Of a stretch of DNA of 64,000 nt, positions 45,947-61,194 are shown piece after piece; position 1 is the first letter of the stretch, and each line of letters begins with the position of its first letter. Both the position numbers and the translations under genes were made by a program. The DNA comes from Deferrisomatales bacterium. Its GTDB lineage: Bacteria > Desulfobacterota > Deferrisomatia > Deferrisomatales > JACRMM01. The notes below the pieces were generated by a model, which saw nothing but the letters and a program-made list of their open reading frames with translations, was not told the origin of the DNA and did not search any database. The DNA is taken from NCBI GenBank assembly GCA_033551855.1, contig JAWSUI010000010.1:24273-88272 (forward strand), in the 5' to 3' direction.

Positions 45947-47959
45947 TCACCCCTTGTCCAGACGCTCGGCCAGGAGCTCGGCCACGTCTGCCACCCGCAC
46001 CCGGCCCTCCGCCTGGAGGTCCTTCACGCCGTCCTCCAGCATGGTCAGGCAGTAGGGGCAGGACACCGCGATCCGGTCCGGATTCGCAGAGAGGGCCTCC
46101 CGCACCCGGTTCAGGTTCACACGGTGGTCCGGCTCCTCCTCCATCCACATGCGCCCGCCCCCCGCCCCGCAGCAGAACCCGTGCTCGCCGCTGCGGGGCA
46201 GTTCTTCCGGAGCCCGCCCCGTGGCGGTGGACACCAAGGACCGCGGGGGCGCGTAGATGCCGTTGTGGCGCCCAAGGTAGCACGAATCGTGGATCACGGT
46301 GCGCCCGGGCTCCCCCGTTTCCCCAAACCGAAGCCGGCCGTCTCGGGTCAGCTCCTGCAGGAGCTCCGTGTAGTGCAGCACCCGGGCTTTGAGCCCATAC
46401 TGGCGATAGTCGTTCTGGAGGGTCGAGTAGCAGTGGGGGCAGTAGCAGACGATGTTTCTCACCCCGCGGTGCGCGAAGAGCTCGGCGTTCTCGCGGGCCA
46501 GGGCGTCGAAGGCGTACTCGTTGCCCAGGCGGCGCTGGGAGTCCCCGCAGCAGCGCTCCTCGGGTCCCAGGATCGCGAAGCTCAGCCCGGCCGCCTTGAA
46601 CAGCCGAGCTAGAGCCACCGCGACTTTTCGGCTTCGGCTGTCGAAGGAACCGGCGCACCCGACGTAGAACAAGTACTCTGCCGTCTGCCCCTCGGGAAGT
46701 TCCCCGAGCAGGCGCAGTTCCAGCCCCTTGGCCCAGCGGCCTCGATCCGCCGGGGGCAGCCCCCAGGGGTTGGAGCGCTGTTCCGTCGCCTCGAAGAAGA
46801 CGCCGAGCTCGGGCGGGAACTTCGCAAGGTTCTCCACCAGGTGACGGCGCATCTGGATGATCTTGGGCACGTGCTCGATGAAGACCGGGCAAACCCGCAT
46901 GCAGGCGCCGCAGGTCGTACAGTCCCAGAGGGCGTCTTCCCCCACGGACCCCACGGCCGCGGCGTCCTTCTCCACGATGAGGGGGAGCAGTCCTTGGGCC
47001 CGGCTGCCGTGACGGAGCTTCTCGCCGTTGGCCAGGAGGTTCACCTTCCCGTCCCGGATGACCAGTCTCGGGTTGAGAGGCTTGCCGCTGGTGGTGGCGG
47101 GGCAGCTCTGATTGCAGCGCCCGCACTCGGTACAGGAGGCGAAGTCGAGCAGGTCCTTCCAGGAGAACCGATCGACCTGCCCCGCGCCGTAGACCCGGCC
47201 AGCCTCGAAGGTCTCCCTCGGGACCGTCCTCACCGGCTCCAGGGAGCGGCAGAAACAGTTCGGGATGGCGGTGAGGATGTGGATGTGCTTGCTGTAGGGC
47301 AAGTAGTTGAGGACGCCCAGGAACGCCAGGGCGTGGAGCCACCAGAAGACCCGGCCGGCCGTGTGGAGCCCCTCGCCGAACACCGCGGCCATCGTGGGCG
47401 CGACGACGACGCGGGTCAACGGCATGAAGGTTCCCCGGGGGGCCTGGCCCAGGGCGATCTCGGCCCCGTGGTAGCCGTAGAAGAGGAACATCAGGAGGAA
47501 CACGAGCCCGAGGACCACGAAGGCATCGATGCTGCGGTACTCGATGTGGGGCGGCTTCACCACCAGACGCCGGTGCAGGGCGACGACCACGCAGGCGATC
47601 ACCAGGAGCGGCACCAGGTCGAAGAGGAGGGTGAGGACGGGATAGAAGACCGGCCCGAACACCGTGAGGCTGATCTGGGGGAAGAGCCCGTTGAGGACGA
47701 AGCCGGCATTGTCGAGGCCGAGGACGACGAAACCCCAAAAGAGGAAGAAGTGGTTCCGCCCGAAAGGCTCCTCGAGCACCCGCCTCTGCCCGAACCCATA
47801 CTCCAGCGCGGACAGGACACGCTTCTCCAGGCCCTGCCGCAGGCGCGGATCGGGCTGCCCCAGCCGCACAGCCCGCACCAGCCGCCGCACGGAGAGCCCG
47901 AAGGTGAAGACGGCCGCGGTGAGGAGGATCGCGAAGACGGTGCTCTCGGTCTGGCTCAT
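45947..47959 (-). CDS. Membrane-bound Fe-S oxidoreductase (HdrF/FadF-like, putative Etf:quinone oxidoreductase)
   Basis: N-terminal TM domain, CTECGRC and CTTCGAC clusters, and two CCG domains (ERCCGD, FCCGAGGG). Confidence 0.9.
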   Translation of the reverse strand: MSQTESTVFAILLTAAVFTFGLSVRRLVRAVRLGQPDPRLRQGLEKRVLSALEYGFGQRRVLEEPFGRNHFFLFWGFVVLGLDNAGFVLNGLFPQISLTVFGPVFYPVLTLLFDLVPLLVIACVVVALHRRLVVKPPHIEYRSIDAFVVLGLVFLLMFLFYGYHGAEIALGQAPRGTFMPLTRVVVAPTMAAVFGEGLHTAGRVFWWLHALAFLGVLNYLPYSKHIHILTAIPNCFCRSLEPVRTVPRETFEAGRVYGAGQVDRFSWKDLLDFASCTECGRCNQSCPATTSGKPLNPRLVIRDGKVNLLANGEKLRHGSRAQGLLPLIVEKDAAAVGSVGEDALWDCTTCGACMRVCPVFIEHVPKIIQMRRHLVENLAKFPPELGVFFEATEQRSNPWGLPPADRGRWAKGLELRLLGELPEGQTAEYLFYVGCAGSFDSRSRKVAVALARLFKAAGLSFAILGPEERCCGDSQRRLGNEYAFDALARENAELFAHRGVRNIVCYCPHCYSTLQNDYRQYGLKARVLHYTELLQELTRDGRLRFGETGEPGRTVIHDSCYLGRHNGIYAPPRSLVSTATGRAPEELPRSGEHGFCCGAGGGRMWMEEEPDHRVNLNRVREALSANPDRIAVSCPYCLTMLEDGVKDLQAEGRVRVADVAELLAERLDKG

Positions 47960-47990
47960 GCCGCTCTCCGGTAGAGGACCGCTCCGAGGC

Positions 47991-49319
47991 TCACTGCCCC
48001 TGGGCGATGTCGCGCAACCTGCGGGTCAGGGCCGGGATCACCTCGAAGAGGTCTCCCACGATGCCGTAATGGGCGACCTCGAAGATGGGGGCGTCCCGGT
48101 CCCGGTTGACCGCGATCACCAGGTCCGCGTCCTGCATCCCCACCAGATGCTGGATGGCCCCGGAGATGCCGCAGGCGACGTAGATCTTCGGGCGCACGGT
48201 CTTGCCCGTCTGTCCTACCTGGCGCTCGTAGGGGATCCACCCGGCGTCCACCGCGCTGCGCGACCCGCTCACGGTCCCCCCGAGGACCGCGGCGAGCTCC
48301 TCCAGGAGACGGAAGTTCTCCCCGCCCTGCAGGCCCCTGCCCCCGGACACCAGGACCTCGGCCCCTGCGATGTCCACGTGGCCGGCCCCGTGCTCGTCCC
48401 GCAGGACCTCGAGAACCTTCGCCGCCACCTCCTTTTCCGCCAGACCCAGAGCCGCCCGGAGGACCTCCCCCGCCCTTCCCTCTTGCCGCTCCGGCCGCCG
48501 CATGACGTGGGGCCGCACCGAGGCCATCTGGGGGCGGTGGACCACGTTGAGGATGGTGGCCATGATGTTTCCGCCGAAGGCGGGTCGGGTCTGCTCCAGG
48601 AGCCTCTGTTCTGCGTCCACCGTGAGCTCGGTGCAGTCCGCCGTGAGGCCGGTCTCCAGGGCGGTGGCCACCGCCCCGGCCAGGTCACGGCCCAGACCCG
48701 TGGCGCCCATGAGGACCACCTCTGGCCGGTGCCGGCGGATGAGCTCCAGGACCCCCTTGAGATACGGTTGGGTGCGGTAGTGGCGAAGCACCGGGTCGTC
48801 CACCAGGTAGACTCTCTGGGCACCGTAGGCGAAGGCCTCCGCAGCTAGGTGCTCCACCCCCTCGCCGAGGACGAAGGCGCCGAGCTCGACGCCGAGCTCC
48901 CGGGCCAGCCCCGCGCCGGCCCCCAGCAGCTCCCAGCTGACCGCAGCGGCCGCGCCGTCCTGCTGCTCCACGAACACCCAGACACCCCGATAGCTCGGGT
49001 CGGCCTGGGGGGCGGGGGGCTCCTCTTCCCCACGGCCGGAGGGCTCTCGCCACTCCCCTCGGCGCTTGAGCTCCTCGATCTGCTGGAGCTCCTCGTCGGT
49101 GTAGAACATCTCCAGGGCTTCGACCGGGCACACCTTCACGCAGCGGCGGCAGCCGATGCATGCGTCGAGATCGATGACCGGCTCCCCGGCGTCATCGTAG
49201 GTGATCGCATCCACCGGGCACTCGGGGGCACATCGGCCGCACGCGATGCACTTGCCCGCAAGCAGTCGGGACTTGCCCCGGGGCTTCCTGGGCGCGCCCT
49301 TGTCCTTGTGCTCGGCCAT
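47991..49319 (-). CDS. etfA: Electron transfer flavoprotein alpha subunit with an N-terminal 2x[4Fe-4S] domain
   Basis: CIACGRC and CIGCRRC clusters; GLTADCT, TRPAFGGN, QVGQTGK and GISGAIQH motifs. Confidence 0.93.
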   Translation of the reverse strand: MAEHKDKGAPRKPRGKSRLLAGKCIACGRCAPECPVDAITYDDAGEPVIDLDACIGCRRCVKVCPVEALEMFYTDEELQQIEELKRRGEWREPSGRGEEEPPAPQADPSYRGVWVFVEQQDGAAAAVSWELLGAGAGLARELGVELGAFVLGEGVEHLAAEAFAYGAQRVYLVDDPVLRHYRTQPYLKGVLELIRRHRPEVVLMGATGLGRDLAGAVATALETGLTADCTELTVDAEQRLLEQTRPAFGGNIMATILNVVHRPQMASVRPHVMRRPERQEGRAGEVLRAALGLAEKEVAAKVLEVLRDEHGAGHVDIAGAEVLVSGGRGLQGGENFRLLEELAAVLGGTVSGSRSAVDAGWIPYERQVGQTGKTVRPKIYVACGISGAIQHLVGMQDADLVIAVNRDRDAPIFEVAHYGIVGDLFEVIPALTRRLRDIAQGQ

Positions 49320-49371
49320 CACTTCAGGTCTCCCGTCCCGGGGTGCCGCCACCCCCGACCCGTGGTTTTCT

Positions 49372-49580
49372 GGTTCTTCCGGCAAACGACCGGGTGGGCC
49401 CGCCCACTCCGGCAGACGAGGCCGGACTGCACGGCAGGTGTTCTCCCCCGCCGCGTCCGGAATCCTCGCGACACCGCGACTCCCGAAGCGGCTGCTCCCG
49501 TCGAGCGGCTGTCCGCCTGCGTGGTCGGGCCCACCCAATCGTCCCTGGACACGAGTACCCGGTCATTTCCCGGATGATCC
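49372..49580 (+). mobile_element. 209-bp MITE copy 4 (between etfB and etfA)
   Basis: Near-identical to copy 1. TSD GGTTTTCT at 49364-49371 and 49581-49588. Confidence 0.92.
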
Positions 49581-49612
49581 GGTTTTCTTCGCCGGGGCGA
49601 CCCCGGCAACCG

Positions 49613-50455
49613 CTACACGGAGATCACGTCCCGCTCGATCAACTTCCGGATGAGCTCCTGGACCGCGCCCTCCGGGTCGGCCTCCCCGTCGCCGACGATC
49701 TCACCCAGGCGACGCTCCGGGGCGAAGATCCGCTTGACGCTGGTGGGGGAGCCCTTGAGCCCGATCCGGTCCGGCGGCAGGCCGAGGACCGCGTTGTCCC
49801 ACACGGGGATCTCCAGCTCCTCGGCCGCGAGCCGCCTGGGGACGGTGGGGTAGCGGGGCTGGTTGATCTCCCGCACCACGGTCACCACGGCAGGAAGCGG
49901 CGCGCGAACCACTTCCCGGCGGCCCTCGAGCTTCCGCCGCACGGTCAAGGCCCCGGCCTCCGGGGAGATCTCCAGGAGCCGGTCCACCAGGGTCAGCTGG
50001 CTCCAGCCCAGGCGGGTGGCGATCCCGGGCCCCACTTGGGCGGTGTCGCCGTCGATGGTCTGCTTGCCGCACAGCACCAGGTCCACTCTCCCCCATTCCT
50101 GCGCCGCCCGCCGGACCGCGGCGGCCAGCACGAGGCTCGTGGCGAGGGTGTCGGCGCCCCCGAAGGCCCGATCCGAGATCAGGACCGCCCGGTCGACGCC
50201 CAGCGCGAGGCACCGCCGAAGGGCCAGAGTCGAGTTCGGGGGGCCCATGGTGAGCGCCACCACTTCGCACGAGAACCGGTCCCGGAGGCGGAGGGCTTCC
50301 TCCACGGCGTGGGCGTCGAAGGGGTTGAGGATGAACGGGACCCCCTCCCGGATCAAGGTTCCGGTCTCCGGGTTCACCTTGACTTGGGTGGTGTCGGGCA
50401 CCTGCTTCACCGCCACCACCACCCTCTGCAGCCGACGACTACCGCCTTGGGGCAT
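49613..50455 (-). CDS. etfB: Electron transfer flavoprotein beta subunit
   Basis: KQVPDT, NPFD..AVEEAL, GGADTLATS and GKQTIDGDTAQVGP motifs. Start approximate. Confidence 0.93.
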   Translation of the reverse strand: MPQGGSRRLQRVVVAVKQVPDTTQVKVNPETGTLIREGVPFILNPFDAHAVEEALRLRDRFSCEVVALTMGPPNSTLALRRCLALGVDRAVLISDRAFGGADTLATSLVLAAAVRRAAQEWGRVDLVLCGKQTIDGDTAQVGPGIATRLGWSQLTLVDRLLEISPEAGALTVRRKLEGRREVVRAPLPAVVTVVREINQPRYPTVPRRLAAEELEIPVWDNAVLGLPPDRIGLKGSPTSVKRIFAPERRLGEIVGDGEADPEGAVQELIRKLIERDVISV

Positions 50456-50624
50456 GGGTTGCGTGCTCCTGTGAGAGGTCATCGGGGCCGTCCCGGGGCG
50501 AGGGGGCGAAGGGAGTGTAACACACGGCCCGTCCCCCACCAGCCGGGAGGACGGGCCGAAAGCGGTCACCGAAGGAAGGCCGAAGAGCCCCCGGCGGCCT
50601 CGCGGGCGAGCCGGAGGGGGCGGG

Positions 50625-51443: not shown

Positions 51444-51656
51444 CGTTGGCTGTCCTTTCCAAGGTCATCCCGCCGGCTCGACCCGCCGCCGTCTTCTCCG
51501 GGGGAGAACCGCGGGGCCGATGCGGGCCGGGGGGGGAAGCACCGTGCCGCCGGGGCCTCCCGCACCCGAGCTCGCGGCATCAGTGTAGAGATGCCACAGG
51601 TTCCTCGTCAAATGAGAACGGTCTCACGAAACCGGCCCGACACCTCCCCGTGGCCG

Positions 51657-51950
51657 TCAGCAGCAGCCCCCCGCGTCGCACCCGCAGGTGGGCGGCCCTC
51701 CGGTGATCCAGCCCTTGATGATCGCACTGGCGCAACCGACCCCGGCCGAGACCGTAAGCGCCCCCGCGGGACAGTTCCGGGCGCACGCGCCGCACTCCAT
51801 GCAGGCGTCCCGGTCCAGGAGCCTGGCCTTGCCCTCCCCCACCGCGAACACGCCGTGGGGACACACGGCCCGGCAAAGCCCGCAGCCGACGCAGGGGCTC
51901 GGATCGAGGCGGAGCGTCGTGACGCCGTCGAGGTAGCGAAACCCGTCCAT
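51657..51950 (-). CDS. hgcB: Mercury methylation ferredoxin HgcB
   Basis: CVGCGLC..VCPH and CMECGAC..NCP clusters, GVGCA and C-terminal GGCC. GGAGG RBS. Adjacent to hgcA. Confidence 0.93.
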   Translation of the reverse strand: MDGFRYLDGVTTLRLDPSPCVGCGLCRAVCPHGVFAVGEGKARLLDRDACMECGACARNCPAGALTVSAGVGCASAIIKGWITGGPPTCGCDAGGCC

Positions 51951-52070
51951 TTGTATCACCTCCTGTGCACCGAAGCCGCCGGCCCTCAGGGAGCCGTCCT
52001 GGGGACCGCTCCCACGGCCGCCGCTCCCCCGCGCGGCCGGGCTCCTCTCGGAAAGGGGCCGACTCCCCTC

Positions 52071-53309
52071 TCAGAATGCGGACGCGAACCAGAATACCAC
52101 CGCCAGTGCGGCGGCACCCACCTGCCACGGGAGCGCCCGGCGCATCTCGCGCTCGACCCCGGACGGCGAGGTGAAGGGGGTCGCGCCGGTGAAGCTCATG
52201 GCGAGGTAGGACGACCCGGCGGACACCCCTAGCAGAAGCGCGAGGAATCCATACCCGCCCGGGAATCCAAACGCGGCGACACCGAGAAGCGCCACCGCGG
52301 CCCCGACCAGGGCGCCCTTCGCCGAGAAGGCGCGCCACGGGAGCAGGGGGAGCAACACGGGCGTGGCGACCGCGCCGGCGACCACCGTGCCGGCGAGGGC
52401 GGCGACGCCGGCCACTCCACGGATCCAGGCGCCGGACAGGGAGTAGAAACCCGGCCCGAACCCGGCGGAGACGGCTATGGCCGCAGCCACCCAGGCGGCA
52501 TGCCGGAGCGTTCCCGCCAGCTCCACGGGAGTAAGGACGAAGCGCTCGAGAGCCGTGAAGGTGACCGTCCGCATCGCCGGGGTCGCCGCCATGCCCGCGC
52601 CCAGGAACGCACCAATGTCCGCGGACCGGACCGGGCCGAAGACCACCGAGAAGCCGCACTCCCTTCGGACCTCGTGGGCCGCTACCCCGGGGGCGCCGAG
52701 CTGGGGCAGGAGCAGCCGTCGGTGGCTGACCACACGGCTCAGGCCCGTCGCCCGCACTCGCCGGACCACCTCGGCGGTCCCGAAGGTGCCCTTTCCCGCG
52801 GCGCACCACACGTTGATACCGTAGGTCTCGAGCACCAGGATCCACGCGTCGAGTCCTGCCAGATCGCGCCGCAGCAGGTCGAAGGTCATCTTGTAGTTGG
52901 CCGTGACCAGCACCGGGGAGCCCCCCCCGGGGCGGCCCACGGCGTAGAGCCCGGGAGCCAGTCGGTAGCGGTCCCTCCCGATCCCCCATCGCATCTGCCA
53001 GCGTCCGAGCACGTCGGTGGCATCGAGGCGGCTCCTGACGCGGGGCACCGGCCCGACGGGCGTGTCGATCCAGCCCTCCACAAAGGGCCAACGCCGATAC
53101 CCCGGGAGTTCCCCCCCGGCCTCGGGCCGGGGCCCGGATGAGGACGGCCCGGGGCAGCAGCTCGCCGGGGACTCCGGCGAAGGGGGCGGCGCAGGGACCG
53201 CGCAGCAGGGGGCCTGCGCCGGGGCGTCCCCGGCAGCGGGCCGCGTCGAGGGGGGCGAGTCCTGGGAGGTCGCGAGGGCACAACAGACCATGGCTTCGTC
53301 CCGGCTCAT
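52071..53309 (-). CDS. hgcA: Mercury methylation corrinoid protein HgcA
   Basis: PGLYAVG, VTANYKMTFD, cap helix GINVWCAAGKGTFG, LPQLGA and C-terminal TMs with FTGATPFTS.SGV..EM. Confidence 0.96.
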   Translation of the reverse strand: MSRDEAMVCCALATSQDSPPSTRPAAGDAPAQAPCCAVPAPPPSPESPASCCPGPSSSGPRPEAGGELPGYRRWPFVEGWIDTPVGPVPRVRSRLDATDVLGRWQMRWGIGRDRYRLAPGLYAVGRPGGGSPVLVTANYKMTFDLLRRDLAGLDAWILVLETYGINVWCAAGKGTFGTAEVVRRVRATGLSRVVSHRRLLLPQLGAPGVAAHEVRRECGFSVVFGPVRSADIGAFLGAGMAATPAMRTVTFTALERFVLTPVELAGTLRHAAWVAAAIAVSAGFGPGFYSLSGAWIRGVAGVAALAGTVVAGAVATPVLLPLLPWRAFSAKGALVGAAVALLGVAAFGFPGGYGFLALLLGVSAGSSYLAMSFTGATPFTSPSGVEREMRRALPWQVGAAALAVVFWFASAF

Positions 53310-53353
53310 GGGTTCCTCCAGCACTCGCGGCCCACCGGGTCGCCGGGGGGGGT

Positions 53354-54427
53354 TCAGGTGGCTCCCGAGCAGGCGCACGCACCCCGCTCCCGGCTCAGCA
53401 GACGGGCCAGGCGCGGCCCCACGGCAAGGGCGATGAGGGCGACGGCGCTCCCCGTCCCCACCCCGGCGGGAAAGACCTCGGTGCTCGCCCCCACCAGGGC
53501 CTGGGCGGAGAGCCCGAGGGCCCCGTACGCCCAGTCCAGCGCGGCTCCCGCGGCGAGCGCCCCGGCGCTCAGGGCCGCCAGGTACCGCAGCGTCGTCTTG
53601 ATCCCGAGGGTCCCCGCCACCACGGTGAGGGAGGCCAGGCTCGTGGCCGGCCCGGCCAACAGGTACACCAGCGCGGCCCCGGGGCTCAAGCCCTTGAGGA
53701 CCAGGGCCGCGGCAATGGGGGTGGCGGCGGTGGCGCAGGTGTACATGGGGATGCCGATCACGAGCATGGCCAGGAGCGGCAGTAGCCCGCCGCCCAGATG
53801 GGCCTCGATGAACTCCGGAGGCACCAGCACCGTGATGAGCCCAGCCCCGAGGAAGCCCAAGGCCAGCCAAGGGGCCAGGTCGCCGAGGAGGTCGCGGAAG
53901 GCGTACCGCAGGCCCTCCCGCGCCCTCGCGAGCCGTCCCGCGGCCTCGGATCCATGCGCTTCGCGGCAGCCGCAGGCCGAGGGTGGCGGCTCCGGGCTCG
54001 GTTCCTCCCGGCCGAAGACGTTCTCGGCCGTCCCGGCCGCCACGGCGGTGGCGAAGGCCGCGACCGGCCGGGCCACGGTCATCACCGGGTCCATGAGGGC
54101 GTAGGTGAGGGAGATGGAGTCGACGCCGGTCTCGGGCGTCGAGACCAGGAAGGAGACCGTGGCGCCCTTCGTGGCGCCCTTCTTCCGCAAGCTCAGAGCC
54201 GCGGGGAGCACTCCGCAGGAGCACAGGGGCAGAGGAATGCCGAACAGGGCGGCCTTGACCACCGAGCGGACCTTGCCCCGCCCGAGATGGCGCGCCACCC
54301 CTTCGGCGGAGACGAAGGCGTGGATCACCCCTGCGGCGAACAGGCCGAAGAGGAGGTACGGAGCAGCGTCGGAGAGGATGTGCCAGGTCCCGGCGAGCAC
54401 CGCGCTCGCGAACTCAGGCCAGGGCAA
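53354..54427 (-). CDS. DUF318/ArsP-superfamily permease (SO_0444-like heavy-metal efflux type)
   Basis: GIPLPLCSCGVLP, FLVSTPETGVDS, PMYTCATAATP and LLAGPAT motifs; Cys-containing loop and tail. Confidence 0.85.
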   Translation of the reverse strand: MPWPEFASAVLAGTWHILSDAAPYLLFGLFAAGVIHAFVSAEGVARHLGRGKVRSVVKAALFGIPLPLCSCGVLPAALSLRKKGATKGATVSFLVSTPETGVDSISLTYALMDPVMTVARPVAAFATAVAAGTAENVFGREEPSPEPPPSACGCREAHGSEAAGRLARAREGLRYAFRDLLGDLAPWLALGFLGAGLITVLVPPEFIEAHLGGGLLPLLAMLVIGIPMYTCATAATPIAAALVLKGLSPGAALVYLLAGPATSLASLTVVAGTLGIKTTLRYLAALSAGALAAGAALDWAYGALGLSAQALVGASTEVFPAGVGTGSAVALIALAVGPRLARLLSRERGACACSGAT

Positions 54428-54773
54428 GCCGGTCCTCCATCACGTGGCGCAGCCCCTCGGCAAACAGGGTGCGCACGTGGTCGTCGTCCAGGCTGTAGAA
54501 GGCCAGCTTCCCCTCCCGGCGCGCCTTGACCAGGCGGTGGGCGCGGAGCACCCGGAGCTGGTGGGACACGGCGCTGGGCGTCACCTCGAAGAGGTCCGCC
54601 AGGTCGCACACACACAACTCCCGGGCGGCGAGGGCCAGGAGCACGCGCACCCGGGTGGGGTCGCCCAGTACCCGGAAGGTCTCCGCCAGCGCTTCGGCCG
54701 GCGCCCCCGCCAAGGCCTTCCGGGCCTCGTCCACCGCCTCCGGGTGCACCAACCGTTCGTGACACAGGTCCAT
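54414..54773 (-). CDS. ArsR/SmtB family metalloregulator
   Basis: FRVLGDPTR, ELCVCDLA, SAVSHQLRVLR and YSLDDDHV motifs. Confidence 0.95.
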   Translation of the reverse strand: MDLCHERLVHPEAVDEARKALAGAPAEALAETFRVLGDPTRVRVLLALAARELCVCDLADLFEVTPSAVSHQLRVLRAHRLVKARREGKLAFYSLDDDHVRTLFAEGLRHVMEDRLALA

Positions 54774-54789
54774 CTGGCACCATCAACGA

Positions 54790-54805
54790 ATGAGCATGTG
54801 TTCAC
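54790..54805. promoter_or_regulatory. SmtB/ArsR-type operator core
   Basis: TGAGCA-TG-TGTTCA (54791-54804), one mismatch from TGAACA-N2-TGTTCA, 17 nt upstream of the ArsR start. Confidence 0.65.
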
Positions 54806-54876
54806 ACATAAGAACACACCGCCGGGCTCCGGTCAATGGGTTGACGGCTCCCTGGTGGAAATAGGCACGCGTTTCC

Positions 54877-54906: not shown

Positions 54907-54976
54907 TAGCCGCCCGAAGGGTGGACCCAACGATCTCGGCTCGAAAACCTGTAGCGTGCAAGAGGAGGGACAGACG

Positions 54977-55939
54977 ATGAGGCGATGCTGGCTCCTGGCA
55001 GTAACGGCATTGGTGCTGAGCTCCGCTCCCGCGTGGGCAACAGAGAAGATCTCGGTAGCCACCGGAGGCACCGGCGGCGTGTACTACCCTTACGGCGGCG
55101 GCATGGCCGAGATCGTGAACAAGCACGTCGCGGGGGTCGAGGCGGTGGCGGAGGTCACGGCCGCGAGCGTCGAGAACGTGCGCCTGGTCGACCGCGGGGA
55201 GTCTGCCATCGGGCTCGTCATGGGTGACACCGCGTTTCAGGCCTTTGCGGGCACCGAGCGGTTCACGGGCGACACGAAGAACATCCGCACGCTGTTCGTC
55301 ATGTACCCGAATCAGCTCCACATTGTGGTGCGGAAAGGAAGCGGCATCGCGAAGGTCTCGGATCTGAAGGGCAAGCGGATCTCCATGGGCGCCCCGGGCA
55401 GCGGCACGGCGGTACAGGCCGAGGCGGTCCTGAGCGCGCTCGGCCTTGGCAAGAGAGACTATCGCCCCTCCTTCCTGTCCTTCAACGAGACAGCCGACGC
55501 CCTCAAGAACCGGACCATCGACGCGGGCATCTGGTCCGTGGCCCCGCCCACCTCGTCGATCATGGACCTCGCCACGACCCATGACATCGAGGTCCTGTCG
55601 TTTTCGGACGAGGAGCTCGAGAAGATCCACAAGGCGTACCCCTACTACTCGAAGTACGAGATCCCGGGGGGTCTGTACCGGGGCGTCGATCGGCCCGTGC
55701 CGAACCCCTCGGTGTGGAACGTGGCCATCGTGAGCGCCGACATGCCCGAGGAGTTGGCCTACGAGCTCACGAAGGCGATCTTCGAGAACCACAGCGAGCT
55801 CGTGCGGGTCCACAGAGCCGCCGAGGACACCAGGCCCAAGGCGTCGGTGGTCAACTCCCCGATCCCCCTCCACCCGGGAGCGGCGCGGTACCTCACGGAG
55901 CAGGGGCTCACGATACCCGAGGAGCTCGTCGCCAAGTGA
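54977..55939 (+). CDS. TAXI family TRAP transporter solute-binding protein
   Basis: Signal peptide; ATGGTGGVYYPYG, SVEN, GAPGSG and PLHPGA.RY motifs. Confidence 0.93.
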   Translation: MRRCWLLAVTALVLSSAPAWATEKISVATGGTGGVYYPYGGGMAEIVNKHVAGVEAVAEVTAASVENVRLVDRGESAIGLVMGDTAFQAFAGTERFTGDTKNIRTLFVMYPNQLHIVVRKGSGIAKVSDLKGKRISMGAPGSGTAVQAEAVLSALGLGKRDYRPSFLSFNETADALKNRTIDAGIWSVAPPTSSIMDLATTHDIEVLSFSDEELEKIHKAYPYYSKYEIPGGLYRGVDRPVPNPSVWNVAIVSADMPEELAYELTKAIFENHSELVRVHRAAEDTRPKASVVNSPIPLHPGAARYLTEQGLTIPEELVAK

Positions 55940-55940
55940 A

Positions 55941-56480
55941 GTGAGGCCCGCCGCGGGCCGGCTGGGGGTCGCCGGGCTGGCCGCCCTGACCCTGGCTCTG
56001 TTCCTGGTCCACCGGCCCCTCCTCGAAATTCGGCTCGAGGAGGGGCCGGTCGTGTGGCGCGAAGCCCTCGCCCCCGGGGAACCCATCGTCCTGTCCTACC
56101 GCCACTCCGTCACGGGCCAGCCCGTGCGGGAGGAATACGTCCTCGACCGCGGCGGGAGGCTGCGGGTCCGCGAGCACGCCTACCGGCTCCAGGGCGCGGG
56201 GCTCGGGCAACGGGAGGGCGAAGGCCGCACGGTGGAGGCCCCCGGGGGGTGGACCCGGGTCCTCGGGCTCGACCGGGACGTGGGGCACTTCACCCTGCGG
56301 GTAGGCCAGGGACCCCAAGACCACCGGCTCCAGGTGCGGGGAAGACAGATGGAATTGAGCCGGACCCTGGCCGGCCGGAGGCTGTGGATCGGCGGGCGGC
56401 CGGCCCGTCTGTGGGAGTGGCTCCGGCACCGGCGTCCCGCCGCGCCGCCGACACCTGCCCCTTGGGAGGAGACACCTTGA
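55941..56480 (+). CDS. DUF1850-like protein
   Basis: LSYRHSV...V.EEY...GAGL; typical position between TAXI and the permease. Confidence 0.75.
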   Translation: MRPAAGRLGVAGLAALTLALFLVHRPLLEIRLEEGPVVWREALAPGEPIVLSYRHSVTGQPVREEYVLDRGGRLRVREHAYRLQGAGLGQREGEGRTVEAPGGWTRVLGLDRDVGHFTLRVGQGPQDHRLQVRGRQMELSRTLAGRRLWIGGRPARLWEWLRHRRPAAPPTPAPWEETP

Positions 56481-58348
56481 CCACGCAACAGAGGACCGCC
56501 CTGGGGTGGGTGACCGGGGGGCTCGCCGTCACGCTCTCCCTCTTCCAGCTGTACACGGCCGGGATCGGCCTGCTCAGCGCCATGTTCCAGCGGGGCATCC
56601 ACCTGAGCCTTGCCATGGCGCTCGTCTTCCTCCTCTGGCCCTCGGGGGGGAGGAGGAAGAACCGGCTGGCTCTGGCGTGGGACGTCCTCCTGGCGCTCCT
56701 GAGCTTCGTCGTCGGCGGCTACATTCTGGTCTTCTACGACGACATCATCTGGCGCATCGGCGAGGCCACGTTCTGGGACATCGCCCTGGGCACCCTGGCC
56801 ACGGTCCTCGTCCTGGAGGCGACCCGGCGCACCACGGGCTGGGTCATGAGCTTCATCGCGCTGTGCTTCCTGGCCTACGCCTTCTTCGGGAGCTACATCC
56901 CGGGCGCCCTCTCCCACAAGGGGTACGGCCTCGAGCGGGTGATGACCCAGCTCTACCTCACCACCGAGGGCATCTACGGCACCCCGCTGGCCGTCGCCGC
57001 CACCTACGTCTTCATCTTCGTGCTCTTCGGGGCCTTCCTCGAGGTGACCGGGGCGGGCCAGTTCTTCATCGACCTGGCCTACGCCCTGACCGGCCGGTAC
57101 CGGGGCGGCCCGGCCAAGACCTCGGTCGTGGCCAGCGCCTTCCTGGGAAGCGTCTCCGGCTCGGCCATCGCCAACACGGTGGCCACGGGCAGCTTCACCA
57201 TCCCCCTCATGAAACGCCTGGGGTACGAGCCCCACGAGGCCGGGGGCATCGAGGCCGCCGCCTCCACCGGGGGGCAGATGATGCCCCCTATCATGGGGGC
57301 CGGGGCCTTCCTCATGGCGGAGTACACCGGGCTGCCCTACCTGGAGATCGTCAAGGTGGCGATCATCCCGGCCTTTCTCTACTTCTACACCGTGCTGCTC
57401 TTCGTCCATGTCTTGGCGGTGAAGAAGGGGCTGCAGGGCTCCGCCAAGGAGGACCTCCCCCCCCTGGGGCGCACCCTCCGGGACGGCATCCACTTCCTTC
57501 TCCCCTTCGGTGTGCTGCTCTACTTCCTCTTCGCCAACTACAGCCCGATGATGGTGGGGTTCGTCTCGGTCGTCTCGGTCTTCCTCGCCTCGTTCCTCCG
57601 ACGGGCCACTCGGGTCGGGTTGGCCAAGACCCTGAAGGCCCTGGAGACCGGCGCGAAGAACGCGATCAGCATCTCCATGGCCTGCGCCACCGCCGGCATC
57701 ATCGTGGGCGTGGTGGGGCTGACCGGCCTGGGGCTCAAGTTCAGCCACCTCGTGGTCAGCCTCTCGGGCGGGTACATCGTACCGGCGCTGGTGCTGATCC
57801 TCCTGGCCAGCCTCGTGCTCGGCATGGGCCTGCCGGTCACGGCCTCCTACATCGTACTGGTGATCCTGGCCGGGCCCGCGCTCCTCGACATGGGCGTGCC
57901 CCTGATCGTGGCCCACATGGTGGTCTTCTGGTACAGCCAGGACGCCAACGTGACCCCGCCGGTGGCACTGGCTGCCTTTGCCGGGGCCGGGGTAGCGGGG
58001 GCCAACGTCATGCGCACCAGCTTCGTCTCCTGGAAGCTCGCCAAGGGCCTCTACCTGATCCCCATCCTCATGGTCTACTCCCCGCTCCTCCTCAACGGCC
58101 CCGTGGACGAGGTGATCTTCGCGGTGGTTTCGTCCCTCCTCGCCCTCACCGGTTTCGTGGCCGCCCTGGAGGGGCACCTCTTCCGGCCGATGGGTTGGAT
58201 CGGCCGCGTCGCCGTGGTGGCGGGAGGGCTCCTGGTGTTCTGGCCCGGCCACGAGACCGACTGGCTCGGCCTCGCCGTGCTGGTCGGCGCCCTGGTGCCG
58301 CAGGTACTCCCGATCGGGCGCCGTCCAACCTTCTCCCGGGGCTCCTGA
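56477..58348 (+). CDS. TRAP transporter fused 4TM/12TM permease
   Basis: GGPAK, SGSAIAN, IEAAASTGGQMMPPIMGAGAF, LGMGLP and TPPVALAA motifs. TTG start with GGAGG RBS. Confidence 0.93.
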   Translation: MTTQQRTALGWVTGGLAVTLSLFQLYTAGIGLLSAMFQRGIHLSLAMALVFLLWPSGGRRKNRLALAWDVLLALLSFVVGGYILVFYDDIIWRIGEATFWDIALGTLATVLVLEATRRTTGWVMSFIALCFLAYAFFGSYIPGALSHKGYGLERVMTQLYLTTEGIYGTPLAVAATYVFIFVLFGAFLEVTGAGQFFIDLAYALTGRYRGGPAKTSVVASAFLGSVSGSAIANTVATGSFTIPLMKRLGYEPHEAGGIEAAASTGGQMMPPIMGAGAFLMAEYTGLPYLEIVKVAIIPAFLYFYTVLLFVHVLAVKKGLQGSAKEDLPPLGRTLRDGIHFLLPFGVLLYFLFANYSPMMVGFVSVVSVFLASFLRRATRVGLAKTLKALETGAKNAISISMACATAGIIVGVVGLTGLGLKFSHLVVSLSGGYIVPALVLILLASLVLGMGLPVTASYIVLVILAGPALLDMGVPLIVAHMVVFWYSQDANVTPPVALAAFAGAGVAGANVMRTSFVSWKLAKGLYLIPILMVYSPLLLNGPVDEVIFAVVSSLLALTGFVAALEGHLFRPMGWIGRVAVVAGGLLVFWPGHETDWLGLAVLVGALVPQVLPIGRRPTFSRGS

Positions 58349-58447
58349 GTCCGGGGGCCCGTTCCCGTCAGAGACGATGGGCCGCCCCGAGCGCACTTCC
58401 GCCGAGACCGGTCGCGGCCCGGATCAACGAGAGGAGGACGTGGGACC

Positions 58448-60214
58448 TTGAAGGGCTTTCACCGGCGGGTGCTGGTGGCCGACCTGGGGAGCCGGACCTG
58501 CTCCGTCGCCGGCGTGGGCGACGAGGTGCTGGCCCGGGCCCTGGGGGGCAAGGGGCTGGGGACGCACCTACTCACGAACCACTCCCTGGTGGGCGTCGAT
58601 CCGCTTTCCCCGGAGAACCCGCTGATCTTCGCGGCCGGGCCCGCCACCGACACGAAGATCCCGGGCTCCTGCCGCTACGGGGTCTTCACCAAGAGCCCCC
58701 AGACCGGCTTCTACTCGGAGAGCTACTCCGGGGGGAAGCTCGCGGAAAAGCTCTCCCGCACGGGGTTCGACGCGGTGGTGCTCACGGGGGCGGCGGACGG
58801 CCCGGTGTACCTGGAGGTGGGGGAGGACGGGGGCAGCGTCCACGGCGCCGAGGACCTCTGGGGCCTCGAGACCTACCCGTCCGAGGACGCGCTCCTCTCC
58901 CGGCACGGGGGGCCGAGCCGGGCGGGGGTCGCCGTCATCGGGCCGGCCGGGGAGAACCGGGTGCCGTTTGCCATCATCGCCAACGACTACTGGCGGTGCG
59001 CGGGGCGCACGGGGGCCGGTGCGGTGCTGGGCTCGAAGAACGTCAAGGGGGTGGTCTTCCACGGGGCCGCCCGCCGGCCGGTGGCTGACCCCGAGGCCAT
59101 CGAGGCGCTCTCGCGCCGCATGCTGGCGGAGAAGAAGGACCACCCCGCCACCCAGGCCTACCGCAACTTCGGCACCCCCATGATGGTGGCGCTCCTCAAC
59201 ACCGTCCAGGCGTTTCCCCACCGGTACTGGCGCCAGGGGCGCATGCCCGACTACGAGCGGATCTCGGCGGAGGCCATGGTCGCGCGGTGCGAGGTGCGCC
59301 CCAAGGCCTGCCCCCGGTGCTTCATGGCCTGCGGGAAGCTCACCACGGTGAAGGAGGGCCGCCACGCGGGGCTCAAGCTCGAGGGGCCCGAGTACGAGAC
59401 CCTCTACGCCCTGGGGGGGCTGTGCTGCATCGGCTCCGTCGAGGAGATCGTGCACCTGAACGACGTCTGCGACCGCCTGGGGATGGACACCATCAGCGCG
59501 GGGAACCTCGTGGCGTTTGCCATGGAGGCGTCGAACTTGGGGGCGATTCCCGAGAAGGTCGCCTACGGGGACGTGGCCGCCGCCGAGGGCCTCCTGGCCG
59601 ACATCGCCGCCCGGCGGGGCCTGGGCCAGGTGCTCTCCCGGGGCATCGCCCCGGCCTCCCGGGAGTGGAAGCTCGAGGACCTCGCCATCCACGTGAAGGG
59701 CCTGGAGCCCGCCGGGTACGATCCCCGGGTCCTCAAGGGGATGGGGCTGGCCTACGCAACCTCGGACCGGGGCGCGTGCCACCTGCGCTCCACCTTCTAC
59801 AAGCCCGAGCTCTCGGGGCAGATCGCCCCCGACGCGGTGGAGGGCAAGGCCGCGCTCTTCGTGGACTACGAGGACCGCCTGAACCTCTTCGACGGCCTGA
59901 TCCTGTGCCGGTTCTTCCGGGACTTCTACCCCTGGGAAGGGCTCGGGGAGGTGGTGCGCTTGACGACCGGCATGGACTTGGGGCAAGAAGGCCTCCGGGA
60001 TCTGGCGCGGAACATCGCCGACCAGGCCCGGCGTTTCAACCTGGCCGAGGGCCTGACGCCTGCGGACGACTGGCTCCCGAGCCGCTTCTTCGACGAGCCC
60101 CTGCCCGAGACCGGCGCCGTGCTCCACCGTGAGGAGCTGGAGCGGATGCGGCGGGAGTACTACGCCCTGCGGGGGTGGGACGGCCAGGGCCGCCCCGCCG
60201 GCGGGACCGACTGA
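58448..60214 (+). CDS. Aldehyde:ferredoxin oxidoreductase family (W/Mo-pterin)
   Basis: KSPQTG, IGPAGEN, GRTGAGAV.GSKNVK, CPRC..AC, GPEYET, GMDTIS and RGACHL motifs. Confidence 0.93.
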   Translation: MKGFHRRVLVADLGSRTCSVAGVGDEVLARALGGKGLGTHLLTNHSLVGVDPLSPENPLIFAAGPATDTKIPGSCRYGVFTKSPQTGFYSESYSGGKLAEKLSRTGFDAVVLTGAADGPVYLEVGEDGGSVHGAEDLWGLETYPSEDALLSRHGGPSRAGVAVIGPAGENRVPFAIIANDYWRCAGRTGAGAVLGSKNVKGVVFHGAARRPVADPEAIEALSRRMLAEKKDHPATQAYRNFGTPMMVALLNTVQAFPHRYWRQGRMPDYERISAEAMVARCEVRPKACPRCFMACGKLTTVKEGRHAGLKLEGPEYETLYALGGLCCIGSVEEIVHLNDVCDRLGMDTISAGNLVAFAMEASNLGAIPEKVAYGDVAAAEGLLADIAARRGLGQVLSRGIAPASREWKLEDLAIHVKGLEPAGYDPRVLKGMGLAYATSDRGACHLRSTFYKPELSGQIAPDAVEGKAALFVDYEDRLNLFDGLILCRFFRDFYPWEGLGEVVRLTTGMDLGQEGLRDLARNIADQARRFNLAEGLTPADDWLPSRFFDEPLPETGAVLHREELERMRREYYALRGWDGQGRPAGGTD

Positions 60215-60237
60215 GCCTCCCCATCGTGTGAGGGCCA

Positions 60238-61194
60238 ATGGAATCCAAGCTCCTCGACCTGCCGGCGGCCGCCGCCCTCGTGCCCAACGGAGCCTCAGTC
60301 TCCATCGGCGGCTTCACGAGCCAGCGCCACCCCACCGCGCTCCTGCGGCAGCTCGTGCGCCGCCGGGTCCGGGACCTCGCCGTCTACTGCCACTCGGCCG
60401 GGAGCGACGTGGACCTGCTCATCGGGGCCGGCTGCACGCGCCGGGTGGAGGGGGCCTACCTGGCCGACGGCGTCTTCTCGCCGATCGCCCCCAACTGGCG
60501 GCGCTTCGTTCAGGAGGGCCGCATCGCCTTCGAGGACTACTCCAACGCGGCCATGATGGCACGGTTCACCGCCGGCGCCATGGGCCTGCCGTTCTTCCCG
60601 ACCCGCTCCATGCTCGGCACCGACCTCCTGGAGAAGGAGGGTTTGACCCCCGACGCCCGGCGGGCAGACCCCGACGCGGCGCCCCGGAAGGCCGCGGTGA
60701 CCCGGTGCCCCTTCACCGGGGAGCCGGTGGTGCTCGTGCCGGCCCTGCGCACGGACCTCTGCCTGCTCCACGTCCAGAAGGCCAGCCCGCTGGGCCTCTT
60801 GCGAATCGAGGGTCAGGAGTTCCTGGACGTCCAGCAGGCCCTTGCGGCGCGCACGGTGATCGTCACCTGCGAGGAACTAGTGGACGACGAGGAGCTGCGC
60901 CGGGAGCCCGAGCGCAACCGCATCCCGCCCTTCGCCGTGCACGCCGTGGTCCACGTCCCCTTCGGCGCCCACCCCCACAGCGTGCACAACTGCTACGACT
61001 ACGACCCGGACCACCTGACGCTCTTCGCCCAGGCCGCCCGGTCCGACGACACCTTCGCAGAGTACCTGGAACGCTTCGTCTTTCGGCCGGCGGACCACGC
61101 GGCCTACCTCGAAGCCGTCGGGGGGGAGGCACGGCTCGACGCCCTGCGGGCGCGGTCGGGCCTCGGGTACAACCCGGAGCTCCGGAGAAGGTGA
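60238..61194 (+). CDS. CoA-transferase subunit A (glutaconate CoA-transferase-like)
   Basis: SIGGF, GAMGLPF.P, CPFTGE, LLHVQKA and PFGAHP motifs. Confidence 0.88.
   Translation: MESKLLDLPAAAALVPNGASVSIGGFTSQRHPTALLRQLVRRRVRDLAVYCHSAGSDVDLLIGAGCTRRVEGAYLADGVFSPIAPNWRRFVQEGRIAFEDYSNAAMMARFTAGAMGLPFFPTRSMLGTDLLEKEGLTPDARRADPDAAPRKAAVTRCPFTGEPVVLVPALRTDLCLLHVQKASPLGLLRIEGQEFLDVQQALAARTVIVTCEELVDDEELRREPERNRIPPFAVHAVVHVPFGAHPHSVHNCYDYDPDHLTLFAQAARSDDTFAEYLERFVFRPADHAAYLEAVGGEARLDALRARSGLGYNPELRRR

Follow-up and report, generated by a model that had tools for sequence, protein, structure and literature searches.

In a 64,000-nucleotide stretch of the genome of a Deferrisomatales bacterium (GenBank assembly GCA_033551855.1, contig JAWSUI010000010.1, positions 24,273 to 88,272; hereafter, the window), the mercury-methylation genes hgcA and hgcB lie on the minus strand behind a gene for an ArsR/SmtB repressor and one for an SO_0444-family permease. 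We estimate at roughly 0.58 the probability that hgcAB have been functionally placed (recruited) under Zn/Cd/Cu de-repression by way of this SmtB/ZiaR-like repressor and SO_0444 cassette. ArsR control of hgcAB is already known. The new elements are the layout itself (SmtB-type sensor, SO_0444 permease and hgcAB) and a predicted selenocysteine (Sec) at the C terminus of the permease.

The proposed mechanism is as follows. The metal-free repressor dimer would bind a palindrome just downstream of the promoter and repress its own operon, and binding of a metal at alpha5 (the Zn-type site) or alpha3N (the Cd/Pb/Cu-type site) would release it. A single arsR-permease-hgcA-hgcB mRNA would be made, ending before ccsB, and an excess of Zn, Cd or Cu would thus relieve repression, increasing the capacity for mercury methylation along with metal export. 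A UGA codon in the permease gene, read as Sec, would add a Cys/Sec metal-binding tail. The efflux cassette would have existed beforehand, hgcAB having likely joined it at least twice.

Gene content of the locus

All four open reading frames (ORFs) were confirmed in the order arsR, permease, hgcA, hgcB. Families were called from NCBIfam profile scores against curated cut-offs (score/cut-off, in bits), which all four products exceeded:

54414..54773, minus strand: arsR, ArsR/SmtB repressor, 119 amino acids (NF033788, 98.8/55)
53354..54427, minus strand: SO_0444-family Cu/Zn efflux permease, TTG start, 357 amino acids to a UGA (NF033936, 380.9/300)
52071..53309, minus strand: hgcA, 412 amino acids (NF040863, 429.3/275)
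51657..51950, minus strand: hgcB, 97 amino acids (NF040864, 129.1/99)

An earlier reading of the sequence alone had described four co-directional genes, and this description holds: arsR and the permease gene overlap by 14 bp, and gaps of 44 bp (to the annotated stop) and 120 bp precede hgcA and hgcB, respectively. Its identification of HgcA and HgcB by their motifs also passed the profile check. The cap helix of HgcA has the consensus N(V/I)WCA(A/G)GK. Here it reads NVWCAAGK (52814-52791), within a corrinoid domain that is joined to a membrane domain, while the adjoining HgcB is a 2[4Fe-4S] ferredoxin with CMECGAC and a terminal CC. By family criteria, the pair are mercury-methylation genes. 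HgcA also has a Pro-rich N-terminal extension with three CC pairs, which by sequence are the Cys form of the PCUGP selenoprotein motif described in the available text of bioRxiv 10.1101/2022.07.06.499078.

The permease had been assigned to DUF318. The superfamily (ArsP/DUF318, PF03773) stands, and the assignment can be narrowed to the SO_0444-family Cu/Zn efflux proteins, given a score above the equivalog cut-off and the CSC motif (PLCSCG). There is also an internal CGC and a C-terminal CACSGAT. SaoE of the SAO system was considered and rejected (NF040736, 167.8/325), and neither SAO ABC genes nor SaoL appeared among the flanking ORFs scanned. The attribution of Zn/Cu export would rest, by analogy, on mutant fitness in Shewanella, where SO_0444 is reported to be needed under ZnSO4 or CuCl2 stress (PMC3219624, available text); the accessible part of PMC10092412 reports its induction by Cd and Cu in Nitratiruptor. 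A recent foreign origin of the locus was also considered and has no compositional sign (GC 0.72-0.74, versus 0.70 genome-wide).

A repressor with motifs for two kinds of metal site

The closest solved structure to the repressor is SmtB (best PDB match, E 1.3e-22), with CzrA and CadC also among the closest relatives. According to the available text of PMC8790569, an alpha3 Cx1-2C with one or two N-terminal Cys and an alpha5 signature define the two kinds of site, and ZiaR and BxmR are listed with both. The repressor carries the complete alpha5 signature DxHx10Hx2E (D97, H99, H110 and E113) and an alpha3N-type set made up of C54-V-C56 and the N-terminal C4, together with a conserved H10, a putative metal ligand to judge by its conservation. 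These three Cys (4, 54 and 56) are the only ones in the protein. Across 38 related arsR-permease loci, which served as the conservation set, the alpha3 C[VG]CD is kept in all 38, the N-terminal Cx5H in 34 and the strict alpha5 motif in 30. One IMG cluster member of the repressor is named "lead/cadmium/zinc/bismuth-responsive".

Sites of arsenite sensors were looked for as well. The Escherichia coli R773-type site requires three alpha3 Cys (C32/C34/C37), and ELCVCDLAD has two; the PRK10141 profile scored below its cut-off (40.5/97); and the arrangement of ArsR2 of Pseudodesulfovibrio mercurii ND132 (Cys47, 49, 86 and 88, directly upstream of hgcA), compared by its published description, is absent. 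Motifs, PDB matches and conservation thus bear out the sequence-only reading that this regulator is nearer to CadC, ZiaR and BxmR than to arsenite sensors; by its motifs, it is a SmtB/ZiaR/BxmR-type (alpha3N plus alpha5) metal sensor. The metal sensed is likely to be Zn, Cd or Cu, as suggested by the motifs and the SO_0444 phenotypes.

We give hardly any weight to arsenic-responsive control of the kind found in ND132. It has a published precedent (bioRxiv 10.1101/2022.10.17.512643, available text) and the permease does belong to the ArsP superfamily, but the repressor has neither the alpha3 three-Cys site nor the ND132 Cys set, its alpha5 site is full, and the permease scores above the SO_0444 cut-off, unlike the ArsP-like permease of the ars locus in the source genome (106/300, below cut-off).

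Predicted operator, promoter and transcript ends

The sequence-only reading had placed a palindrome just upstream of arsR, and it is there (TGAGCA-TG-TGTTCA on the forward strand). The features predicted around the start and the end of the unit are:

54791..54804, no strand assigned: predicted operator, TGAACA-CA-TGCTCA, core of a SmtB-type 12-2-12 inverted repeat
54831..54836, minus strand: putative -35 box of the arsR promoter, TTGACC, read from the sequence
54808..54813, minus strand: putative weak -10 box, TCTTAT, placed by a 17-nt spacer, of low confidence
51619..51634, minus strand: terminator-like hairpin after hgcB, likely 3' end of the unit
51611-51582, minus strand: promoter-like site for ccsB, separate and 3' of the hgcB hairpin

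The predicted operator has the 12-2-12 form, with five of six pairs in the 6-2-6 core and about 7 of 12 over the full arms (hand count), and resembles TGAACA-GA-TGTTCA in Table 2 of PMC8790569 (available text). It is the sole match to TGARCANNTGYTCA in the window at up to one mismatch (0.13 expected); on its own this is weak, as 13 of 100 shuffles also reach one match. In the related loci, TGA-N8-TCA was found upstream of arsR in 30 of 38, with one locus unscorable, and TTGAC stands shortly upstream of the palindrome in most of them, with TTCAAT or TATCAT at the -10 position. TGA-N8-TCA occurs a second time, at 51626, in the same place as the hairpin after hgcB; its sequence deviates from the consensus, and it was treated as chance. 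A wider regulon was rejected: of the 12 genomic sites within one mismatch of the palindrome only one is exact, and the other 11 compare with 6 in a reversed control.

The scan for sigma-70 promoters and terminators listed neither kind of site in the permease-hgcA gap, where either could have uncoupled hgcA from the permease, nor in the hgcA-hgcB gap. Its calls for promoter-like sites exceeded expectation (2 against 0.2) more than those for terminator-like ones (4 against 2.5), which makes the hgcB hairpin weak evidence if taken alone. The unit most likely spans 54836 to about 51620, to judge from the predicted signals; the gene layout fits a single autoregulated operon, and hgcA and hgcB are likely to be transcribed together with arsR and the permease gene.

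Conservation of the linkage

In the family to which the window belongs (f1), the layout is found in seven of eight genomes, two of them inferred across contig breaks (G002 and G006). On one contig it is direct in G000, G001 and G005 and has two unknown genes inserted in G003 and G007. Over the 401 genomes of the phylum, 83 gave an SO_0444 match and 125 an hgcA match; 32 gave both, when about 26 would be expected if the two were independent. The family search can miss genes and did miss G005. A second lineage is the family of G264 (f72; 101 genomes), with 36 SO_0444 matches, 49 hgcA matches and, after three weak partial hgcA rows were dropped, 24 genomes with both. Six of these 24 have the linkage on one contig, either directly (G416 and G440; locus L011 matches the latter) or with an acyl-CoA dehydrogenase gene inserted (G264, G455, G473 and G456), and two more are split but compatible (G474 and G486). 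The linkage spans three genera in each family. Of the 26 permease loci from metagenomes, L181 alone is followed directly by hgcA, and it lacks arsR. From this distribution, arsR and the permease gene, with their operator, commonly form a cassette that stands alone, to which hgcAB have been added.

The number of origins was approached with trees of the permease (47 rows, quick method) and HgcA (133 rows, FastTree). Both place the f1 and f72 groups each with its own taxonomic neighbors, and a single f1 plus f72 clade, when forced, is rejected (deltaL 212 for HgcA and 136 for the permease; fast search, 2000 replicates, hand-chosen subsets of 23 and 22 taxa, respectively). The one-clade tests rule out one horizontally spread mobile cassette. 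Either hgcAB and the cassette were joined two or more times, or an old linkage has been lost on many occasions; because the trees reject a single clade for both proteins, the layout probably arose at least twice.

Several observations weigh against recruitment into a metal-controlled operon. The scan missed the arsR promoter, with its weak -10 box, and so could miss an internal one; there are terminator-like hairpins inside hgcA (52299-52272 and 52112-52096), and the hgcA-hgcB gap of G000 contains a strong GC-rich structure. One member of the family, G004, lacks the linkage, as do the 13 genomes searched from the rest of the order. Phylum-wide it is rare, in 5 of the 32 genomes with both genes (G000, G001, G003, G006, which is split, and G264), and 16 of the 24 f72 genomes with both genes have no link. 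The acyl-CoA dehydrogenase gene interrupts the linkage in G264, G455, G473, G456 and the split G486, and because it interrupts these five f72 loci, unrelated genes appear also to ride in the operon. Finally, the identity of the sensed metal comes from motifs only.

Some of these points would also suit a passenger role, in which hgcAB would owe co-transcription solely to their landing behind an autoregulated promoter, and metal control would be real but of no selected meaning for HgcAB. We regard this as fairly unlikely. The genes at the head of hgcAB do vary: in G008 there is a different ArsR subtype, then the same two unknown genes; in those f4 loci that were examined, an SBF-like transporter (f4 gave no SO_0444 match in its six genomes); and elsewhere, MarR or AbrB-type genes or DAHP synthase (PMC10349881, available text). 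The acyl-CoA dehydrogenase insertion and a co-occurrence near chance agree with it too. A passenger role is harder to reconcile with the same join in two separate clades, a third permease-hgcA junction in L181 and a link that persists across the genera of both families.

The sequence-only reading had gone further and proposed a dedicated transport-plus-methylation unit. That idea is not supported by the comparison, in which the arsR-permease pair is widespread alone, few genomes carry the link and another gene stands between in the second lineage. The synteny and phylogeny survey it had called for did recover the layout in two separate clades, although its rarity in the phylum makes the arrangement less general than had been implied.

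Other features of these loci deserve mention. Immediately ahead of hgcA, genus g2 and G008 share the two genes (L116:7617-8521, plus strand; L119:6261-7243, minus strand), which have no Pfam or NCBIfam match and stand under different regulators; they encode a small, probably secreted CxxxxC protein and a membrane protein with CFLVGCCG, and are candidate HgcAB accessory genes. The second ArsR/SmtB subtype has Cys near its N and C termini; its gene leads the hgcAB locus of G008 (L119:7218-7670, minus strand), which has its own palindrome upstream, and that of G159 (L144:842-1252, plus strand). In genus g2 (L114-L116), a second, divergent ArsP-family permease gene shares the intergenic region with arsR. 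G004 has two hgcAB copies from different clades (L122 and L123), one of them after a methyltransferase and a MarR gene. The acyl-CoA dehydrogenase gene (L159:7338-8414, plus strand) is found 86-90% identical directly before hgcA in two f72 genera, and precedes hgcA also in G415, with no permease found nearby. In f72, HgcA of permease-linked loci is without the N-terminal CU/CC motif, whereas C-UGA is present in most of the HgcA examined from unlinked loci (L159 and L199-L203 versus L214-L218).

A predicted selenocysteine at the end of the permease

The annotated stop of the permease gene is a UGA, and there is a good chance that it is decoded as selenocysteine, as judged from a Cys homolog, hairpin enrichment and the presence of Sec machinery. 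The predicted features, the second being a selenocysteine insertion sequence (SECIS), are:

53354..53356, minus strand: permease UGA, annotated stop, predicted selenocysteine
53327..53343, minus strand: predicted bacterial SECIS hairpin, GCGACCC-GGU-GGGCCGC, one mismatch, loop G 17-18 nt after the UGA
53306..53353, minus strand: predicted 15-residue read-through tail (translation with TGA=U), its stop overlapping the hgcA start (ATGA)

In G486 the codon aligned to this UGA is Cys, and the protein continues as the peptide encoded past the UGA in its f72 relatives; it is the one case, with no further convincing Cys homolog among 59 held-out permeases. The hairpin fits the bacterial SECIS model of the Fig. 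2 legend of PMC13188914 (available text), with a G in the first loop positions 16-37 nt after the UGA, but this loose model alone is also satisfied by 134 of 500 ordinary TGA stops. With a first window for the loop start (17-21 nt), 18 of 43 TGA permeases passed, versus 50 of 500 background stops, and these 18 include 14 of the 25 TGA permeases with a loose tail motif. Under a stricter rule, a G[GU] loop 17-18 nt after the codon, the hairpin follows 19 of 43 UGA-ending permeases and none of eight that end in UAA or UAG; in the source genome, 39 of 1423 ordinary TGA-ending ORFs have it. Because this rule and the tail motif had been set after seeing the data, a held-out set of 60 new permeases (59 scorable) was run with the rule unchanged, giving 9 of 38 UGA-ending permeases versus 0 of 21 with other stops. 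By hand count, x-Cys follows 18 of those 38 UGAs and 2 of the 21 other stops, many of the proteins being f72 kin. HgcA C-UGA sites served as the positive control: about 34 of the 73 score at the 17-18 position (hand count, including a few false sites), most of the rest falling at 19-24. The source genome has selA, selB, selD and tRNA-Sec. ARAGORN called two tRNA-SeC genes in G000, the second of which may be a false call or contamination.

The same hairpin could instead be a terminator or processing site, with hgcAB transcribed separately from the permease. It stands directly after the annotated stop, at which database proteins end (357 amino acids); covariation is weak (75% of cells are paired, a level reached by 2 of 500 shuffles, and the covariation score is reached by 23 of 500); and selA was not found in G011, G313, G159 and G473, incomplete assemblies in which the motif or hairpin is present. 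These points also count against the Sec reading. Uncoupled transcription is nevertheless very improbable in our view, as no U-tract follows the hairpin, the 44-bp gap holds no promoter-like site, the fixed-position hairpin occurs only after UGA in both permease sets, and the Cys homolog exists. The hairpin is not unusually stable alone (z = +1.02), and the 73-nt junction folds no more stably than its shuffles. G159 has an internal USC site.

With the UGA read as selenocysteine, the 44-bp gap probably becomes an ATGA overlap. The read-through stop overlaps the start of the next gene also in G416, G264, G455, G473 and G486, directly with hgcA in G416 and with the inserted gene in genus g182. Three further ideas were dropped. 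ATGA coupling is not a conserved rule, being absent in G001, G002 and genus g2. Masking of the hgcA ribosome-binding site by the lower SECIS stem was rejected for the source genome, with unpaired probabilities of 0.57 free and 0.49 with a ribosome at the UGA, and relatives were mixed. The Sec tail does not track loss of selA, which is present in tail-less genomes and in the Cys-bearing G486 as well.

The selenoprotein form of SO_0444 is described, in the texts available, with USC at the CSC motif and one Sec per protein, and the available parts of two texts that mention SO_0444 selenoproteins do not describe a C-terminal Sec. If the prediction is right, current annotation cuts short many permeases of the SO_0444 family, and two Sec are present in some of them. 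The permeases at L164, L175, L179, L182 and L187 have a USC site and a C-terminal UGA with hairpin, and may be double selenoproteins.

A Cys/Sec-tailed permease next to HgcAB could also be imagined as part of a dedicated methylate-and-export unit, in which HgcAB would methylate Hg or another soft metal and the permease would export the organometal product. The permease family lies within a superfamily of organo-arsenical exporters (ArsP), and the predicted tail, the three CC pairs on HgcA, the ATGA overlap on read-through and the recurrent linkage would all suit such a role. Yet the permease with its Sec-type tail also occurs in unlinked loci, 93 of the 125 hgcA-positive genomes gave no SO_0444 match (in a search that missed at least G005), the source genome has a separate mer locus, and Hg is reported, in the text available, not to induce hgcAB. 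We hold this unit to be decidedly unlikely. A related and more speculative proposal is that HgcAB natively methylates a non-Hg soft metal (Cd, Pb, Bi or similar) in metal overload, with the Sec-tailed permease exporting the methyl-metal and the operon assembled at least twice because the two steps cooperate; the permease would then be a candidate methylmercury exporter. This, too, seems quite unlikely.

Comparison with known systems

The proposed recruitment of hgcAB under a Zn/Cd/Cu-type sensor is best set beside the ND132 system, where the preprint, in its available text, shows ArsR2 to control hgcAB and to respond to As and S-adenosylhomocysteine (SAH). In both organisms an ArsR/SmtB-family repressor heads hgcAB, co-transcribed with them in ND132 and likely so here. 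ArsR2, with its own Cys set, abuts hgcA with no transporter, whereas here the sensor is of the alpha3N plus alpha5 type and an SO_0444 efflux gene stands between repressor and hgcA. SO_0444 is not mentioned in the main text of the preprint. The preprint does report other, non-orthologous ArsR/SmtB genes flanking hgcAB in Deltaproteobacteria (its Table S4), and loci of the present type may be tabulated there.

As far as their available texts go, metagenome-assembled methylators with hgcAB beside ars genes (acr3, arsC, arsM and arsR) are described in PMC7438021 and PMC11984097, and ars-type or other regulators beside hgcAB in these and in PMC10349881 and PMC13362967. These methylators share with the present locus the placement of hgcAB in a metal(loid)-resistance neighborhood with an ArsR-like gene, but their partners are arsenic genes, while here they are of Zn/Cd/Cu type, and a different contig carries the ars locus. 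The cyanobacterial ZiaR, BxmR, SmtB and AztR operons, as given in the available text of PMC8790569, resemble it in the alpha3N and alpha5 sites, the 12-2-12-type operator near the promoter and the pairing of the regulator with a metal-export gene. They differ in their targets, P1B-ATPases or metallothioneins rather than an SO_0444 permease and hgcAB, and in the N-terminal ligand pattern, which is Cx5H here. Shewanella SO_0444 has the same CSC motif and passes the same family cut-off, but its regulator is ZntR-like (PMC3219624, available text). The SAO system with SaoE (bioRxiv 10.1101/2022.07.06.499078, available text) has a related permease and CC/CU motifs, and its authors proposed organometallic chemistry with an explicit parallel to HgcAB; it differs in being a nine-gene locus, the present one being flanked by ccsB/etf and TAXI-TRAP genes. 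In the literature searched, with most subscription journals outside the search, no text was found to describe hgcAB together with an SO_0444 permease, or a Sec at the C terminus of an SO_0444-family protein.

The only experimentally tested hgcAB regulator that we found in print is the one responding to arsenic and SAH. The present locus is a defined alternative, offering a Zn/Cd/Cu-type sensor, a known operator class, a named efflux partner and recurrence in two lineages. If the proposed control is true, the methylation capacity of these organisms could shift with co-contamination by base metals.

Genomic surroundings

The arsenic genes of the source genome are on contig C46 (acr3, two other ArsR and the ArsP-like permease). 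Upstream of the unit is a divergent TAXI-TRAP operon and downstream is ccsB; the ccsB/etf and TAXI-TRAP flanks are common to G002 and were not seen in the other relatives examined. The window contains an etfB-etfA-CCG-domain oxidoreductase cluster (45947-50497, minus strand) and a TAXI-TRAP transporter with aldehyde ferredoxin oxidoreductase and CoA-transferase genes (54956-61194, plus strand).

The mercury genes are on contig C9, with merA above its cut-off and merR-, merB- and merT-like genes below theirs. The MerB-like gene in this cluster (G000, L285:7290-7937, minus strand) falls short of the cut-offs for both MerB and SaoL. Some 50 codons from its end it contains an in-frame UGA, which is followed by a hairpin. 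It is likely, from these features, to encode a selenoprotein organomercurial lyase, and the source genome may encode both methylation and demethylation.

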